Shown here: positions 2,799-57,363 of the stretch, in pieces | Layout of the letters: every line of letters begins with the position of its first letter | Numbering within the stretch: the stretch's first letter is position 1 | IMG/VR virus record: IMGVR_UViG_2974529992_000001 | Span: 3,119-67,118 of that record | From: a virus | Lineage: Duplodnaviria; Caudoviricetes | Reading direction: 5' to 3' (one strand) | Length of the DNA: 64,000 nucleotides | Notes under the pieces: generated by a model | Databases searched by the model: none | What the model saw: the letters and a program-made list of their open reading frames with translations, nothing else | Told to the model about the DNA's origin: nothing | Program-made: the position numbers and the translations under genes

Positions 2799-3554
2799 AT
2801 GGCAGGCAAGGGTCTCGTTCGAGGAAAGGCTTGGGGTAACGCTCTGGGCGGATACAAGACCCAGCCCCGTGACGCCTCGGGTCGATTCGGCGGCAAGGCT
2901 AAGAAGCGAGGCAGTTTTACGGTTCTTCGTAACGGAGGGCCGACCCCCGGCTCCAAGCCGAGGCGAGTAACCAATCCCAGCGCGGTTCCTCGTGCCAGTG
3001 GCCAGCGTAGCGTATTCAGCAAGGCTGACAAGATCGCTCGCAGTCGAGGCGGGGGAGTGGTGCCTTATCACCGTCACGGATATGGTCATCACACCGCCGG
3101 AGTGAATGCTGGCATCAGCATCACACCGAATCGACGGATCTCGGGCGGCGTGTACCTGCGTACCGATAACCTGCGTGCCCAGAAGCGTGTTTCGAAGCTC
3201 CTGAGCGCCGATGAGCGCGCTCGGATGGCCATTGGTGGGGGCGTGGCCACCGTGTACGGAGGTCAGAAGCGTAACGCCAATTGGATCAAGCGGAAACGAG
3301 ACGCTTTGGTCCGAAAGGGGCTCGGCAAAGAGCTGAACATCCCAAATTCCAACGCCTTCGGTCGAGCTGGCACTGACCGGAACGGCCTCCCGACCCTCGT
3401 CGTGCAGTACAATAGCCCGAGAGGAAAGAAGGAGCGCAGTCGTAAGGCTCGTGACACGGCAATCGTGAAGTACAACGAGGCAGCGACTCGCAGTCGGGGC
3501 AACAAGGTGAAGAAGCCGCGTCCGCAAAGGAGGAAGAAGAATGGCAAAGGGTAG
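2799..3554 (+). CDS. Highly basic protein with WGNALGG and RDxxGRF motifs (251 aa)
   Basis: N-terminal AWGNALGGYKTQPRDASGRF; K/R-rich. Confidence 0.85.
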   Translation: MAGKGLVRGKAWGNALGGYKTQPRDASGRFGGKAKKRGSFTVLRNGGPTPGSKPRRVTNPSAVPRASGQRSVFSKADKIARSRGGGVVPYHRHGYGHHTAGVNAGISITPNRRISGGVYLRTDNLRAQKRVSKLLSADERARMAIGGGVATVYGGQKRNANWIKRKRDALVRKGLGKELNIPNSNAFGRAGTDRNGLPTLVVQYNSPRGKKERSRKARDTAIVKYNEAATRSRGNKVKKPRPQRRKKNGKG

Positions 3555-26890: not shown

Positions 26891-27279
26891 GTAGATCCGC
26901 TCGAGCGATACGCAGGGCTGCGCCTTAAAACAGTGTGAGACATGATATTTTCGCGCGCGTGGTAAGACCAGCGCGCGATCGATACTTTCGCGCCCGCACA
27001 CATGAACGCACGCACGGAATAACGATCGTGCGCGATCCACACTTTCGCGCCTGGAGCGCGAGCGCCCGCACGGAACGTGGAAACGCGAACGCGATCGTTG
27101 TTCCGTGCGTGCGTCTGTGTGTCCGCACGCGAAAGCAATGAACGCGCGCGATCCTTTATGTGCCCCGAAGCGAGTGTGCCTGCACGCGCGCGTCGCGCGA
27201 CGTGCACGTCGTGTGCGTGTGCGACACGCACGCACGTTCCACATTGCGCGCGAGAGAAAAATTTTTATTTCGGATCTAC
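26891..27279 (+). ncRNA. Candidate large structured RNA (alternatively an origin-like DNA element)
   Basis: Nested inverted repeats including a 23-bp stem 27006-27028/27092-27114; checked mismatches are U-G wobbles on +; no credible CDS. Confidence 0.5.
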
Positions 27280-33708: not shown

Positions 33709-34418
33709 TGACCAAAACCAGAAACGTAAGCAAAAGAAATATCGCTTACACTGACGGAAGATCTGCTTGGCAGGAGGACGAAGATCGATTTCTAGAGGAA
33801 AATTGCAAATTGGCAACTATCCCTCAAATGGCCAAGTTTCTGGGGAGGACCGTTCCTTCCGTAACAGGAAGAATGAAGAAGCTAGGTCTAAGCGGAGGTC
33901 CAAGAGGTGTCAACAAGGATCCGTTCCGCATGCCTTCTGGAGCGATTCTCATTGCCAGAACCTGCCTGAAATGCGGTCTTTTCCTCCCAGAGAATTGGTT
34001 CCACGTCTCTCATAAAATTCACAGAGATCAGTATTGCAAGTCTTGCAGGAACGGAATCGGGAAAAGTCGTGATCGTAAAGAGTATACGAGAATTGGCAAC
34101 GAGAAAGAGAAAGCGAAGAACGTCGTAACATCTAAGATGGCGACCAGAGTTGGGATCTCGTGGGAGGAAGAAGAGGATAGCTATCTTCGCGAGAACTATA
34201 AGGAGAAGGGCGACTTTCAACTTGCAATAGAGATGGGTCGAACCATGAAAGCCATAACTCATCGAAGGCATGTTCTAGGATTAAGCAAGAACAGGATCAG
34301 GTACACCGACCCAAGGAATGAGATGTGGGTCATTCACTTCCCGAACGCCATGAAGGCTCTTCGGGAAGAGTTCAAAAAGCTGGGTATTCCAGAAGAAGAA
34401 TGGGACTGGAACGATTGA
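33705..34418 (+). CDS. Myb/SANT-like HTH - zinc finger - Myb/SANT-like HTH protein
   Basis: WQEDEDRFLEEN...MAKFLGRT..SV; CLKC...CKSC; WEEEEDSYLREN...LAIEMGRT..AI; low GC. Confidence 0.75.
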   Translation: MMTKTRNVSKRNIAYTDGRSAWQEDEDRFLEENCKLATIPQMAKFLGRTVPSVTGRMKKLGLSGGPRGVNKDPFRMPSGAILIARTCLKCGLFLPENWFHVSHKIHRDQYCKSCRNGIGKSRDRKEYTRIGNEKEKAKNVVTSKMATRVGISWEEEEDSYLRENYKEKGDFQLAIEMGRTMKAITHRRHVLGLSKNRIRYTDPRNEMWVIHFPNAMKALREEFKKLGIPEEEWDWND

Positions 34419-34454
34419 GTGTGGTACGGTTAGCTCGAAAGGTAAGGTGATCGC

Positions 34455-36506
34455 ATGGGAACAATCTGGCTAGACAAGGTTGGCAACAAGCTCATCCTCA
34501 AGAGCGATTGGCACGACACCATCGCTGCTCGCTGCAAGGAGGTGGGCGGGGGTCGCTGGGATCCCAAACGCAAGGCTTGGGTCTACGACCTTCACTGGCA
34601 CGTGTGTCTCCGCATTCGAAAGCTCGTGGCCACCCCTCTCGGATGGCCCATCAGGCTCAGCACCGACATGAAGGAGTGGGCGGAAGCCGAGAAGCTCCGC
34701 CAGGACTCCATACCTGACCCCACCGAACAGAAGCTGATCCAACTGGCTCTGAGCGGGAGCAGCCCCAGGATCTGGGACGCCGTTTCTACTCGCAAGTTCC
34801 AGACCGTAGGGATCGATTTCGGCAACCGAGTTCGCCGCTTCGTCCTGGCGGACGATCCAGGTCTGGGTAAGACTCTCCAGACAATCGGTATGGTCGAAGA
34901 GGCGCAGCTTCACGGACCGATCCTCGTGGTCGCGAACAAGTCCGCACAACAGATCACGTGGCCGAATGAGATTCGTAAGTGGACCGACGACAAGGTCGTC
35001 GTCTTCGATACGACGATCCCGAAGGCGCAGCGCGGGAAGCTGATCACGGACCTGTTCGACGAGTGGGAGCAGAACCCCGAGATGCGGACCTGGGTCATCA
35101 TGAATCCGTACTGGGTTCGTATGAAGGCCGAGGTGGACGACTACGGCAAGTTCCTGAGGACTGAGAAGGGTCTCAAGATCGTTCGTGCCGAGGTGCCCGA
35201 ACTTTTCATGGAGTACTGGGCAGGCGTGTTCGCCGACGAGTCTCACGAGACGCTGGCGACCAGTACCGGCAACGCGAAGAAGTGGTCTCAGCAGCGGCAA
35301 GGCATGGGCGCACTGAACGTGATGGACAACGGATTCAAGGTCAGTATCTCTGGAACCCCGATGCGCGGCAAGCCGACGAACATGTTCGGTCAGCTGAACT
35401 GGCTCTACCCGGAGCAGTACACGGGATTCTGGCCGTGGGCCAAGCGTCATTTCGCGGTCACAGACGAGGGTTACGGTGGTGCTCTGGAGGTCGGCGAACT
35501 CCTCAACCCGAAGGACTTCTACAAGGAGATCGCGCCGATAATGATCCGGCGTACCAAGGCCATGGTGGCTTCTGACTTGCCACCCAAGCAGTACGGTGGC
35601 ACCGAGCACCCCGCAGGCGACGTCGTGGGCGTGTGGTTGCCACTCCTGCCCGCACAGCAGAAGGCATACGACCAATTCGTCAAGTCAGGAACCTACACCG
35701 ACGAGAACGACGTGTCGCTGGAAGCGATCGGTGGACTGGCTCAGTTCACTCGTATGAAGCAACTCGCCACGAGCCTCGGGCACGTGGAGAAGAGGCTGGT
35801 CCCGATCCCCAAGATCTACGAGGATCACGTCTACGACCCGGATAGCGACCAGATCCTCCACTTCAAGGGTGAGAAGATCAAGCTGCCCAACGGCCGGATC
35901 GACTACATGGTTGACGAGGTCACTGGTGAGAAGCTCACCATGACCAAGGACGTGTTCGTTCCGGAGCTACCCTCGAACAAATGGGAATGGCTCAAGGAAT
36001 GGCTGATGGAGCGCGACCTTCTCGGCAAGGAAGCGAAGGGCACCGGAAAGGTACTGATCGCTAGCCAATTCCGCCAGGTGCTGAATTTGTTCCGGGATGA
36101 GCTGAAAGAGCTAGGGACAGAATCGTTCGCTATCACTGGCGAAACCAGCGCCAAGAATCGCGTGAAGATTCAGGACCAGTTTCAGAACAATCCGGACAGC
36201 CCGAAGATTTGCTTCTTGCAGACCGTAGCCGCTGGGACATCCCTGACGCTGGACGCGGCAGACGATGTGATTATTCTGGACGAGATGTGGGACCCGGATA
36301 AGCAGACGCAGCTGGAAGATCGCGCACACCGATTGTCGCGCGTGGATCACACGGTGACAATCTGGTACGTGCGCAGCCTCGGAACCATTGAGGAAGACAT
36401 CGGCGTCACCGTGAGCGAGCGGTTTGACATCTGCCACGCAGTGCTGAACGGTACGAAGGAAGAGTCTCGAGCCGCTCGTAGACGGCTACTGCCGAAGGCC
36501 GCGTGA
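34455..36506 (+). CDS. SNF2-family (SF2) helicase
   Basis: DDPGLGKT, DESH, SGTP, C-terminal QLEDRAHRL. Confidence 0.92.
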   Translation: MGTIWLDKVGNKLILKSDWHDTIAARCKEVGGGRWDPKRKAWVYDLHWHVCLRIRKLVATPLGWPIRLSTDMKEWAEAEKLRQDSIPDPTEQKLIQLALSGSSPRIWDAVSTRKFQTVGIDFGNRVRRFVLADDPGLGKTLQTIGMVEEAQLHGPILVVANKSAQQITWPNEIRKWTDDKVVVFDTTIPKAQRGKLITDLFDEWEQNPEMRTWVIMNPYWVRMKAEVDDYGKFLRTEKGLKIVRAEVPELFMEYWAGVFADESHETLATSTGNAKKWSQQRQGMGALNVMDNGFKVSISGTPMRGKPTNMFGQLNWLYPEQYTGFWPWAKRHFAVTDEGYGGALEVGELLNPKDFYKEIAPIMIRRTKAMVASDLPPKQYGGTEHPAGDVVGVWLPLLPAQQKAYDQFVKSGTYTDENDVSLEAIGGLAQFTRMKQLATSLGHVEKRLVPIPKIYEDHVYDPDSDQILHFKGEKIKLPNGRIDYMVDEVTGEKLTMTKDVFVPELPSNKWEWLKEWLMERDLLGKEAKGTGKVLIASQFRQVLNLFRDELKELGTESFAITGETSAKNRVKIQDQFQNNPDSPKICFLQTVAAGTSLTLDAADDVIILDEMWDPDKQTQLEDRAHRLSRVDHTVTIWYVRSLGTIEEDIGVTVSERFDICHAVLNGTKEESRAARRRLLPKAA

Positions 36507-37213: not shown

Positions 37214-37618
37214 ATGATTGAAGCATGGGAGTATGCAGGATTCTTCGCTTGTGGCTTCGGGGGAGCCGTGGCCGGATGGGCGAGGTCTCGGAAGAAGTAC
37301 AACGACACAATTCGAGAATACGAGTACGGCACCGCCAGGCTGCAAGCGGACAGCGCTGTCGCGCAGCAGAAGCTGTTCGACCTGAGGCGCGACATCGACA
37401 AGGTCGTCGAGAAGAAGTTTCGGGAACGCCTGGCGGAATGGAATCCCGATCAGGACGACATCGAGGCGGACTTCCGCAAGGCGGAGTACATGGCAGAGAA
37501 GCGGGAGATGCTGGACGCAGGGCGTCTCCACCCGCCTGTGGTGAAGGATGGCGAGCCAGCACGGATTTCACGTGTCTCCTTCCGTCATCCCAAGTCAAAA
37601 GGAGAGGGCCGAAACTAG
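37214..37618 (+). CDS. Membrane-anchored hypothetical protein (134 aa)
   Basis: N-terminal hydrophobic segment then coiled coil. Confidence 0.65.
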   Translation: MIEAWEYAGFFACGFGGAVAGWARSRKKYNDTIREYEYGTARLQADSAVAQQKLFDLRRDIDKVVEKKFRERLAEWNPDQDDIEADFRKAEYMAEKREMLDAGRLHPPVVKDGEPARISRVSFRHPKSKGEGRN

Positions 37619-37659
37619 GAGCTCTCACCAAAAAGTTGCAACAAAGTTTGTTGTTTTGC

Positions 37660-37688
37660 TTGCAATGCCCGATCAGGTAGGGTAACGT
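37660..37688 (+). promoter_or_regulatory. Sigma-A-like promoter
   Basis: TTGCAA-17-TAACGT; AT-rich upstream; CAGGTAGGG in the spacer. Confidence 0.72.
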
Positions 37689-37757
37689 AGTACTTGCACC
37701 GCCCGAGAGGGCAGCAGTCGCCCAGGGTGGGCGAACCGTCCAGAGGAAGGGACCACA

Positions 37758-38297
37758 ATGTCGGAAGACACCACCGCAACGACCGAGGAAGGTCGCGTCG
37801 TCGCACCCCGCAACGTGCAGGAGATGCGGGAACTCAAGGCAGTCAAGGCCACCGAGGCCTCCACCTCGTTCGCCAACTTCATGAACGCCAACCTCGCGAA
37901 CGCCGAGGGCTACACCCCCGTCACCCCCGAACAGGCGTGGACCCTGATCTACACGCACCGGGTCTGGCAGGGCTCCGACGAGCGCGCGGCCGAGAAGGAG
38001 GCGCTCAAGACCCAGAAGAGCGCCGCCGCCGAGGCCAGGAAGGCGGAGCGCGAGGCCAAGAAGCAGGAGCGCGACCGCATCGCGGCCGAGAAGAAGGCCG
38101 AGAAGGAGCGCAAGGCCGCCGAGAAGAAGGCGAAGGAAGCCGAGGCCGGCGAGGACCTCGAAGCCGCCGACACCGAGGGCGAAGGCGAGATCGCTCCCCG
38201 CAAGCGCAAGCCGCGCAGCCGGACTCCGAAGGCCGAGACGCCCGCCGAGACCCCGGCCGAATCCGAGGCCGTGGAGCCCGGAGCCGACGGCTTCTGA
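37758..38297 (+). CDS. Hypothetical protein with K/E/A-rich helix (179 aa), paralog of the 27420 protein
   Basis: SD GAAGGG; strong codon bias; HRVWQGSD motif. Confidence 0.85.
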   Translation: MSEDTTATTEEGRVVAPRNVQEMRELKAVKATEASTSFANFMNANLANAEGYTPVTPEQAWTLIYTHRVWQGSDERAAEKEALKTQKSAAAEARKAEREAKKQERDRIAAEKKAEKERKAAEKKAKEAEAGEDLEAADTEGEGEIAPRKRKPRSRTPKAETPAETPAESEAVEPGADGF

Positions 38298-38312
38298 TCT
38301 CCTCCCCTGGAG

Positions 38313-38617
38313 CCAGCGCTCCCGATCCTAATTTCACTCGCCGGTGACGTGCGGATCGGGGGTTCTGGAAGGCATCAGTGCAGAGAGGCGACGACCGACC
38401 ACAGTGGATCCTCTTCCCGCGTCGGCGTTGGCACTGATGTCTTCCAGAGCCAGTTGGCTCTTCAACCGTCAGGGGCGGTCAGCGTAGATGCATCCTTCTA
38501 CGGCCGGGAACTGGCGCGAAGAATTGGGACCACCTTCCTTAGCGGTAGGCTCGAGACGAGTAACGGACCCGACGGGCGATGCCGAAGCGGCTCCCTGGCG
38601 GTTGAAGAGCTAATTGG
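38313..38617 (+). ncRNA. Candidate structured RNA (two long adjacent stems, branched interiors)
   Basis: 21-bp stem 38361-38381/38431-38451 and 24-bp stem 38451-38474/38593-38616; all five mismatches are G-U on +. Confidence 0.7.
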
Positions 38618-38638
38618 ACAGACGAGAAAGGAAACACG

Positions 38639-39784
38639 GTGACAGAGTTGCCGTTCGTCCGCTCCTCAGAGAGGGGCGCGTACAAGAGCTGTCCTCAACG
38701 CTGGTACTGGGCCTATGTCGAGAAGCTGGTCCCCAGCGCAGTTGTCCTCGGCGCTCGCGACTTCGGCACCGGACTCCACCTCGCAATGGCGGAATTCTAC
38801 ATCCCCGGACTGAAGCGGGGTCGGGATCTCATCGAGACCTTCGACGAATGGGCGAGGCAGGCCAAGAACGAGGCCACCGCCACGGAGAAGGGTCGCAAGA
38901 ATTTCAACGAAGCCGAGTTCAACGAAGAGTGCGAGAAGATCAGGCACGCTCTTCGCGAACACATGCGGATCACCAACGGTAATCCTCACTGGGAAGTGAT
39001 CGCCAACGAGCGCACATTCGCCGCTGACATTCGCGGCAAGGCGATCGCCGTAGGAACCATCGACCTCGTCATCCGAGACACCAAGACCGGCAAGCTCTGG
39101 ATCATTGACTGGAAGACTTCCAAGGGCTTCCCGCACCCCGAGGCCTACAAGTTCAACGACCAGGGTGGAAGCTACTCGGCCATCGCTACCACGATCCTTC
39201 GCCACCTCGGCCTGATCGGCCCGCAAGAGAAGATCAAGGGCATGGTGTTCGTGGTCCTTCGTAAGGTGCTTCCAGACGAACGACCGCAGAACCCCGACGG
39301 GTTGTACTGCAATCAACCGAAGAAGGATCACTACATCGATCAGCTCGGCAAGGAGCTCGAGTACGAGCCCGGCGAGTTGGAGAAGATGACCCTCAAACAG
39401 CTCCAAGCCGAAGCTCTGGAGAACGAGGTCGTCGTGTACGGCGATGTCTCCAAGAACCAGCCCATGCCGGTGATCAAGGACTATCCCGTCGAGCGCACAG
39501 TGAAGCAGCAGAGTCACCAACTCAAGCGCCTCGTGGACGACGTTACCGTCATGGACATGGCGCGTAAGGGCGAGATCCCGATACTCAAGGCTCCCGGCAG
39601 CCTCTGCCCGTATTGCGACTTCTTCCAGCTGTGCGAAATGGACGAAAGTCAGGGCGATGTCGAGGGTATGAAGCAGCTCATGTTCCGGAAGCGCGACCCG
39701 TACCACGATCATCGCGAGGGCGCGCAGAACAGCAAGCTGTCCGTGACCGCCGATTCCAAGCTCAAGTACGAGGGAGGAACGTAG
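38639..39784 (+). CDS. Cas4-like/RecB-family PD-(D/E)xK exonuclease
   Basis: RSSER..YKSCPQRW; GTIDLV; IIDWKT; CPYCDFFQLC. Confidence 0.88.
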   Translation: MTELPFVRSSERGAYKSCPQRWYWAYVEKLVPSAVVLGARDFGTGLHLAMAEFYIPGLKRGRDLIETFDEWARQAKNEATATEKGRKNFNEAEFNEECEKIRHALREHMRITNGNPHWEVIANERTFAADIRGKAIAVGTIDLVIRDTKTGKLWIIDWKTSKGFPHPEAYKFNDQGGSYSAIATTILRHLGLIGPQEKIKGMVFVVLRKVLPDERPQNPDGLYCNQPKKDHYIDQLGKELEYEPGELEKMTLKQLQAEALENEVVVYGDVSKNQPMPVIKDYPVERTVKQQSHQLKRLVDDVTVMDMARKGEIPILKAPGSLCPYCDFFQLCEMDESQGDVEGMKQLMFRKRDPYHDHREGAQNSKLSVTADSKLKYEGGT

Positions 39785-57141: not shown

Positions 57142-57363
57142 GCATAACGGCACCTACGCGAGCACATATCGGCAAATAACGCGCCTACCAGGGCATATCG
57201 GCATAACGCCAAAACGAGCCGCTAACCACCTTAGGGTATTTTTGAAGGGCAGGTACAAAGGGTGACACAAAGGGTGACACAAACAAAAACCCTCACGTGT
57301 AGCTATTGGTAAAGTGCTGTTATGCCGATATGTGCTGGTAGGGGCGTTATTTACTCGGTATGT
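57142..57363. repeat. Inverted and tandem repeat array downstream of the primase-helicase (candidate origin)
   Basis: About 44-bp imperfect IR 57164-57207/57319-57363; ACAAAGGGTGAC x2 at 57255-57278; AT-rich. Confidence 0.8.

Follow-up and report, generated by a model that had tools for sequence, protein, structure and literature searches.

The 64,000-nucleotide (nt) stretch analyzed here, which we call the window, comes from a virus of the Caudoviricetes (IMG/VR record IMGVR_UViG_2974529992_000001, positions 3,119 to 67,118). In the window, an unannotated gap separates a K/E/A-rich gene, whose stop codon lies at 38297, from a gene for a Cas4-family exonuclease that belongs to an exonuclease-recombinase-SSB (single-stranded-DNA-binding protein) operon. 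The gap is made up of three separable modules: hairpin 0 (38319-38362), the stem-A hairpin (38361-38451), and a larger element, domain B (38451-38616). Domain B, on the + strand, is a member of an uncatalogued folded-RNA family of approximately 150 to 200 nt found in actinobacteriophages.

An earlier note made from this sequence had described two long stems in the gap, and direct reading confirmed both. Stem A (GGTTCTGGAAGGCATCAGTGC, 38361-38381 with 38431-38451) consists of 21 base pairs (bp), including two G-U pairs; stem B (CAGTTGGCTCTTCAACCGTCAGGG, 38451-38474 with 38593-38616) has 24 bp, three of them G-U, and can be extended by one further pair, G38475-U38592. Each of these five deviations is a G-U pair on the + strand that becomes an A-C mismatch if read on the - strand. 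The arms of stems A and B ranked third and fifth among the inverted repeats no more than 300 nt apart that a repeat finder reported in the 64-kb window. Folding of positions 38298-38640 gave -166 kcal/mol and z = -5.7 for the + strand, versus z = -2.9 for the - strand. The inner helices CGTAGA/TCTACG, GCCG/CGGC, and CTCG/CGAG are also present as described, and all three are retained in homologues.

When 50,697 phage records were searched by BLAST with the gap as query, 56 Gordonia phage records matched. Seven Terapin-like records matched over the entire gap with 92% identity, approximately 48 phages of the Deejayvirinae (DJ cluster, Kenoshavirus and Tanisvirus) matched in the stem-B part only with 74-88% identity, and LilyPad, a Terapinvirus whose gap is 206 bp long, matched in the stem-A part only with 97% identity. 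A genome-wide search of LilyPad with the covariance model described below yielded no copy of domain B. Because the DJ phages match only the stem-B part and LilyPad only the stem-A part, the three modules are units independent of one another. The earlier note had read the gap as one RNA of about 300 nt, in which hairpin 0, stem A, and stem B are joined, the two stems stack coaxially, and the upstream hairpin acts as a 5′ switch. In the window phage the three structures do abut, and all contain + strand G-U pairs. However, domain B occurs without stem A in the approximately 48 DJ phages and in all metagenomic members, LilyPad has stem A without domain B, and the conserved unit is 38451-38616 alone. 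As for the switch, the upstream hairpin (38319-38328/38353-38362) overlaps stem A by only 2 nt, and the minimum-free-energy fold holds both together; only a weak CCAG/CTGG extension of the hairpin competes with stem A. A single 300-nt RNA is thus extremely improbable.

The junction of stems A and B, at 38443-38462, reads AGAGCCA-GT-TGGCTCT, a 7+7 palindrome. LilyPad retains this palindrome with AC at its center and then runs directly into the 3′ flank, and therefore the domain-B indel starts right after the palindrome.

Covariation among homologues, named earlier as a check on the structure, proved strong for domain B. We used two alignments, A2, with 21 sequences (the window copy, Terapin, 13 DJ phages, and six IMG/VR loci retrieved by an invariant-box scan), and A4, with 27 distinct sequences from at least eight lineages whose G+C content ranges from 53% to 71%. 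In A2, 93.1% of the cells were paired, versus 29-44% when the partners were slid by 1 to 3 columns; 34 of the 58 pairs were changed on both sides, and none of 500 shuffles attained the observed values. RNAalifold detected compensatory changes in 25 of 49 pairs. Six of the seven helices have covariation support, the exception being P4, which is invariant.

The covariance model matched the window at 38449-38618 with 161 bits (E = 6e-41), the sole copy. Scores were 150-170 bits on the + strand versus 39 bits on the - strand, and wobbles and mismatches in the helices amounted to 128 G-U versus 34 A-C. Only the + strand fits the model. The proposal of a structured RNA on that strand was thus borne out by the fold z-scores, the strand-specific model scores, and the covariation. 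Domain B is not a small gene and contains no conserved open reading frame (ORF), because the lengths of the elements (151 to 198 nt) differ by values that are not multiples of three and stop codons occur in shifting frames.

The fold of domain B comprises seven helices (Table 1). P3, P4, and P5 stack as a rod broken by two purine-rich internal loops of near-fixed sequence, and the tip is a three-way junction bearing the variable hairpin P6 and the mini-hairpin P7 with its nearly invariant CGAGACGA box. The loops and P4 are almost invariant, while the helices covary. Among the 21 sequences, 23 of the 27 pairs of the closing helix P1 show double changes, and comparison with Terapin alone reveals two double compensatory changes. 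The length of P1 remains between 21 and 27 bp across every lineage as its sequence drifts. It is followed by GACAGACGAG, which is not a U-tract.

Table 1. Features of the gap between the K/E/A-rich gene and the Cas4-family exonuclease gene (positions in the window)
Feature	Position	Strand	Description
Hairpin 0	38319-38362	+	CUCCCGAUCC/GGAUCGGGGG stem with small apical hairpin; from sequence and fold
Stem-A module	38361-38451	+	21-bp helix enclosing an inner helix of ~10 bp
P1, 5′ strand	38451-38475	+	Long closing helix; partner 38592-38616
P2, variable hairpin	38483-38502	+	CGUAGA/UCUACG; loop 38489-38496
P3, 5′ strand	38503-38506	+	GCCG; pairs with CGGC at 38588-38591
5′ core	38507-38531	+	Loop GGAACU; P4 GGCGCG 38513-38518; loop AAGAA 38519-38523; P5 UUGGGACC 38524-38531
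P6, variable hairpin	38533-38549	+	CCUUCC/GGUAGG with U-U mismatch; loop UUAGC
P7, mini-hairpin	38550-38564	+	CUCG-AGA-CGAG, then UAAC; includes CGAGACGA box
3′ core	38565-38591	+	P5 GGACCCGA 38565-38572; loop CGGG 38573-38576; P4 CGAUGCC 38577-38583; loop GAAG; P3 CGGC 38588-38591
P1, 3′ strand	38592-38616	+	Partner 38451-38475
Cas4-family exonuclease gene	38626-39784	+	With Shine-Dalgarno-like AAAGGA; from ORF list and orthologue annotation in Terapin, Sienna, and LilyPad

The stem of P2 is replaced elsewhere by CCUAGC/GCUAGG, UCUAACU/AGUUAGA, or CCGG/CCGG, according to hand-checked homologue alignments, and its loop holds an additional hairpin of 25-27 nt in some DJ phages. Counts for this helix refer to DJ-type sequences only, the 5′ arm of the window-type P2 falling in other columns of A2. 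Three of the four pairs of P3 covary among the 21 sequences. P6 is constant in position and different in sequence and length in each lineage. In Tanisvirus-type members (L006, L007, L008, L013, L014, and L019) the P6 loop reads CCUUCCUCCUUCUCAC; this stretch of pyrimidines, which other lineages do not conserve, resembles that at the 16S rRNA 3′ end. A pseudoknot between the 5′ flank and P7 was also considered and dropped, as it is not conserved in other lineages.

The core is far more constrained. The internal loop between P3 and P4 is GGAAC(U/A) opposite G(A/U)AG, and that between P4 and P5 is AAGAA opposite CGG(G/A). P4 itself (GGCGCG/CG(A)UGCC) never varies, and its 3′ strand, CGAUGCC, carries a bulged A. 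The tetranucleotide CGAA spans 38517-38520, within the 5′ core. P5 is formed by UUGGNNNC and GNNNCCGA with a conserved A-A mismatch, and its fifth pair is A-U, G-C, U-A, or C-G depending on the lineage, i.e., all four Watson-Crick combinations. The GGGAACNGGCGCGAAGAAUUGG box is identical in all 21 A2 sequences, and of the 27 A4 sequences only L131 differs, with a single substitution that turns UUGG into UCGG and an extra G. On the 3′ side, CCGACGGRCGAUGCCG is likewise invariant in A2 (21/21); the deviants in A4 are L025 (CUCUACGG) and L165 (CUGACGG). The CGAGACGA box departs in 2 of the 27 A4 sequences; in L020 and L131 it ends in U (CGAGACGU). In Eddiemania the P7 stem is CUAG/CUAG, a compensatory pair (146-152) that alters the box at two positions.

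Beyond the Gordonia phages identified by BLAST, the carriers of domain B include six IMG/VR viruses and four metagenome contigs; the copy in G004 spans 34342-34505. The covariance model found members outside its training set, namely, L025 and L131 from IMG/VR and the four contigs from a scan of metagenomes. In the DJ phages, the element lies in an unannotated gap of 270-300 bp that has a small membrane-protein gene on one side and a gene of approximately 150 codons on the other. The interior of domain B is 84-88% identical between Terapin-like and DJ phages despite unrelated flanking genes, and comparison of the sequences indicates that the element has moved between unrelated phage clusters as a unit of approximately 165 nt. 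Domain B is present in one copy per genome. When 185,579 species genomes were searched for the two boxes, six loci came up, each a chance match in coding sequence with no fold and no match to the model. As far as this exact-box search tells, the family appears to be restricted to phages and proviruses.

No catalogued family matches the element. With Rfam 15, nothing in the window reached the gathering score; for positions 38200-38750, a scan relaxed to E ≤ 10 gave no match to the element and just two chance-level matches outside it. Domain B is therefore no known riboswitch, ribozyme, tRNA-like RNA, 6S RNA, or YrlA. Specifically, the covariance models of the known self-cleaving ribozymes (hammerhead, twister, twister-sister, pistol, hatchet, HDV-like, hairpin, and VS) gave no match at E ≤ 10, and no tRNA or tmRNA model matched anywhere in the window. 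ARAGORN, run on homologue-carrying loci only, placed tRNAs solely beside the element in L025 and never over it. We also weighed resemblances to the ZTP and FMN riboswitches, to K-turn, T-loop, and sarcin-ricin motifs, and, in the P6 loop, to an anti-Shine-Dalgarno sequence; each was discarded for lack of conservation or of an Rfam match. The RNA-based prophage origins of cluster A phages (PMC7157519) lie in a different context (parABS) and show no similarity to domain B.

Domain B always lies in unannotated gaps, and the adjoining genes vary between phages. The Cas4 exonuclease gene is its downstream neighbor in the window phage, and a gene for a phrog_6802 protein takes that place in the DJ phages. 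In G003 (L025 4353-4513), genes for tRNA-Trp and tRNA-His follow the RNA at a distance of approximately 130 nt. The RNA is flanked in L166 by the large terminase gene and a 656-amino-acid ORF, and in L164 it is found 2 kb past the small terminase gene. The upstream gene is not common to the carriers either, since phrog_908/1467 proteins are found there only in G003, G004, and G006, and the K/E/A-rich protein only in Terapin-like phages. In provirus G006, which looks related to G003, a Ro60 gene and a phrog_908 gene precede the RNA. A tblastn search with every ORF of the window against LilyPad, Rickmore, and G001 to G006 identified no protein common to all carriers.

These contexts bear on whether domain B is a cis-acting leader of the exonuclease-recombinase-SSB operon, an alternative raised in the earlier note. 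It would then be a riboswitch or a protein-binding operator that controls the translation or stability of the next gene. Such a role would agree with the orientation of the element, which is that of the flanking genes, with the next start codon lying 22-45 nt away in the window and DJ phages, and with invariant loops that could suit a ligand pocket. The downstream signals are placed as had been described, with the Shine-Dalgarno-like AAAGGA at 38626-38631 and a GTG start at 38639. However, the downstream genes do not form one functional class (Cas4 exonuclease, phrog_6802, two tRNAs, the 656-amino-acid ORF, and others), and in LilyPad the exonuclease operon, the flanking genes, and stem A persist without domain B. 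Such varied neighbors and the RNA-free operon of LilyPad speak against a dedicated leader and favor an RNA gene that is self-contained and exchangeable. Furthermore, no expression platform is apparent, as the Shine-Dalgarno sequence is located 10-15 nt past P1, outside the helix and unpaired, no alternative terminator/anti-terminator fold was seen, and no intrinsic terminator (a GC-rich hairpin with a U-tract) or other terminator-like site was found in 37600-38800. Moreover, a closing helix of 21-27 bp is atypical of aptamers. A leader function is thus quite unlikely, and the Cas4-family exonuclease gene is regarded here simply as a neighbor.

The mobility of the element raises the question of whether it acts as DNA, being either a selfish mobile element akin to a miniature inverted-repeat transposable element (MITE) with terminal inverted repeats, or a single-stranded-DNA structure serving as an origin or priming site. 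Its presence or absence in close relatives (the window phage and Terapin versus LilyPad), its transfer among unrelated clusters as a unit bounded by inverted repeats, and the position of the window copy in a replication/recombination region would all be in line with that. In contrast, the supposed terminal repeats vary freely while pairing is kept, and therefore no transposase could recognize the arms. There is one copy per genome, and no target-site duplication is visible at the empty site of LilyPad. The invariant G-U pairs, together with a ratio of G-U to A-C of 128:34 in the helices, speak for RNA, and the location of the element is not tied to replication or packaging genes. A DNA element is accordingly very improbable.

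Domain B could also be a self-cleaving ribozyme, or purely a processing signal that serves to cut a polycistronic transcript between genes and has no function in trans. In favor of this, near-invariant nucleotides cluster in the internal loops and the junction, the element is intergenic in many contexts, and both the long P1 and the adjoining 21-bp stem A are of a size suited to RNase III. Yet the lack of any match to Rfam ribozymes even at E ≤ 10 speaks against the first possibility, and a simple RNase III site needs no core of approximately 60 invariant nucleotides. We consider this explanation decidedly unlikely.

P1 nevertheless has the character of an RNase III-type stalk, a near-uninterrupted double-stranded RNA of about 20 bp or more, in that it measures 21-27 bp. 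In the stalks cleaved by RNase III in rRNA and phage T7 transcripts, a near-perfect helix of at least two turns surrounds a functional RNA between polycistronic genes, and its length is kept while its sequence drifts, features shared by P1. Unlike those stalks, the helix of domain B encloses a small, highly conserved core, and its cleavage is a prediction.

Among the readings considered, the one that fits best is that domain B is an autonomous small RNA acting in trans, to which we give an even chance. The RNA would be transcribed together with, or just ahead of, the neighboring genes, and the mature form would be excised by a double-strand-specific, RNase III-type nuclease cutting in P1. Excision is proposed because the length of P1, at least two helical turns, is kept while its sequence drifts, as a double-strand-specific nuclease or a binding protein would select. 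The invariant loops and P4 may then provide a binding platform or scaffold for a protein that most carriers do not encode and that would therefore most likely belong to the host.

Transcription signals count against an autonomous RNA gene. No sigma-70-type promoter was found beside the element in the window or in Rickmore. In the DJ phages (L002 1454-1494 and the same place in the others), a 12-15-bp hairpin with the loop CUAACAC, followed by UUUUCGCUUUUCAUUU, constitutes a strong terminator-like site that stops approximately 12 nt before P1, and therefore transcription of domain B in those phages requires read-through or an unrecognized promoter. TAnnnT hexamers are found just upstream of the element in several lineages, e.g., TGGTAGAAT in L166 and TGCTATCGT in L017; judged by their sequence, they are suggestive of promoters of its own.

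The most specific candidate for a function in trans is a Y-RNA-like role, which is a weak lead and not a result. An Ro60/Rsr-type protein would dock at the stem-loop junction that bears the invariant CGAA. In its full form, this possibility makes domain B a new class of Y RNA, in which the P4-loop-P5 segment binds the Ro60/Rsr ring protein, encoded by the phage in a few carriers and otherwise by the host, and an effector such as PNPase is held at the distal junction. In favor of this possibility, the 5′ and 3′ ends of domain B form a long helix, and CGAA is present on the 5′ strand at the junction of P4 and the loop in 27 of 27 sequences. The Ro60 determinant of bacterial and phage Y RNAs is CGAA or GNCGAAN0-1G (PMC4201824, PMC12135203). 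In many members P5 is GUCCGA/UUGGAC, and vertebrate Y RNAs contain GGUCCGA (PMC4201824). A TROVE/Ro60 gene is located upstream on the same strand, at 0.8 kb in G006 and at approximately 6 kb in G004, and Ro-like genes are rare (96 of 50,697 phage records). Actinophage Ro genes sit among tRNA genes, and the RNA of G003 abuts two tRNAs.

Several observations weigh against this Y-like lead. Most carriers are devoid of an Ro gene: TROVE is absent from the 67-kb genome of the window phage and from Terapin, Rickmore, Avazak, Mossy, G001, G002, G003, and G005. G003, G004, and G006 look interrelated, so that the linkage to Ro may represent one event. G006 already has a YrlA-like RNA beside Ro, with another 5′ motif. 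VanLee and Neville, two Gordonia phages that encode Ro, carry YrlA-like RNAs as well, and neither has domain B. T and D arms are absent from domain B, and the context of its CGAA is CGCGAAG, with no exact GNCGAA, and a motif of 4-5 nt is weak evidence. The YrlA model (RF02553) gave no match at E ≤ 10 over 38200-38750, and the YrlA-like RNAs beside phage Ro genes have GGUUACUUC in common rather than the core of domain B. The polarity of the GUCCGA strand relative to the RNA ends is opposite to that in Y RNAs, in whose vertebrate members GGUCCGA is paired with UUGACC. An unfiltered run of the domain B model over the surroundings of the Ro genes in VanLee, Neville, GiJojo, and BRock returned noise only. 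Finally, Y RNAs are expected within approximately 4 kb of the Ro60 gene on the same strand (PMC4201824), a distance found in G006 only, since the Ro gene of G004 is approximately 6 kb away. We regard a new Y RNA class as unlikely.

Comparison with YrlA (RF02553) and with Yrl1 and Yrl2 of Thermus phage phiLo summarizes both sides. Like them, domain B is a small RNA with a long end helix and a stem/internal loop/stem arrangement carrying CGAA on the 5′ strand; it is borne by actinophages, and two proviruses have a TROVE gene upstream of it in the same orientation. Unlike them, it is larger (150-200 nt), has a much longer closing helix, and lacks the tRNA mimicry of the T and D arms, a YrlA match, and, mostly, an Ro gene.

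Searches around Ro genes also returned matches to other RNAs. Sub-threshold YrlA matches (L155 573-669, L196 5579-5655, and L197 5754-5870; 44-47 bits versus a gathering score of 69) are located directly upstream of Ro-like genes in provirus G006 and in the Gordonia phages VanLee and Neville. All share GGUUACUUC on the 5′ side, show evident T and D arms, and lack annotation in the records. In the Streptomyces phage BRock (L199 8079-8242), a near-threshold match to manA RNA (49.7 bits versus a gathering score of 55.2) is found in the tRNA/Ro region, where it overlaps the start of a coding sequence annotated "collagen triple helix repeat".

Domain B thus represents a new family within a known kind, the structured small RNAs of phages, and support for its reality is strong. 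It resembles the orphan structured RNA motifs of phages (Weinberg 2017, PMC5737381; PMC10690425) in being intergenic, covarying, and phage-borne, with no assigned function. More than ten thousand candidate structured RNAs have been reported in viruses (PMC10690425); we found no description of the domain B motif in the literature or in Rfam 15, and the unnamed IMG/VR candidate lists of that study could contain it. The pRNA of phage phi29 is a resemblance in general outline only, with an end helix of approximately 25 bp and a three-way junction, and one metagenomic member of the family adjoins the large terminase gene. In contrast with pRNA, domain B has no similarity to it in sequence or in Rfam, the Gordonia copies are far from packaging genes, and the head-packaging type of the carriers gives no reason to expect a packaging RNA.

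A bolder proposal is that domain B, with a precise tertiary fold, represents a new functional class. It would be a Y-like RNA, either independent of Ro or hijacking the host Ro, that diverts the RNA decay or repair of the host in the course of infection, or else a new ribozyme or an anti-defense decoy, and it would spread among unrelated actinophages as a self-contained cassette of 165 nt. We view this as speculative and rather unlikely.

The other two modules of the gap are more restricted, both occurring in Terapin-like phages only. Hairpin 0 is outside the conserved family. In LilyPad its stem is CUCCCUGCCC/GGGCAGGGGG, which in the alignment corresponds to three compensatory pairs relative to the window phage. 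Lying just past the stop codon of the K/E/A-rich gene, it probably closes the upstream transcript as a 3′ end structure or terminator of that gene; it has no U-tract, and the terminator scan of 37600-38800 was empty. The stem-A module is confined to Terapin-like phages including LilyPad, with 97-100% identity, and is absent from the DJ phages that carry domain B. The sole change among these relatives, C38432 to U, yields another + strand G-U pair; stem A is otherwise nearly invariant in its few relatives. The module is possibly a site for a double-strand RNase or a second small RNA.

Two other inverted repeats stand out in the window. At 26971-27149 (and 27194-27250), a very long imperfect repeat has 58-nt arms that are 81% complementary and separated by 63 nt, and repeats nested in it include CGCGCGATC and ACTTTCGCG; it is unrelated to domain B, whose model gave no match there. 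A second strong repeat at 57174-57352, with 34-nt arms that are 91% complementary and 111 nt apart, is a candidate long-helix element.

The annotation of actinophages consists almost wholly of proteins and tRNAs, and a blank gap in approximately 60 deposited genomes hosts one of their most conserved sequences. The approximately 60 near-invariant nucleotides, the covarying helices, and the transfer between unrelated phages argue that domain B has a selectable function. LilyPad, as a natural knock-out, and the tractable host Gordonia terrae 3612 make domain B directly testable, and the covariance model lets annotators label these gaps. If a host protein such as Ro60 docks on domain B, these phages would exemplify carriage of just the RNA component of an RNA-protein machine; should domain B prove catalytic or act as a decoy, a further class of RNA would be gained.

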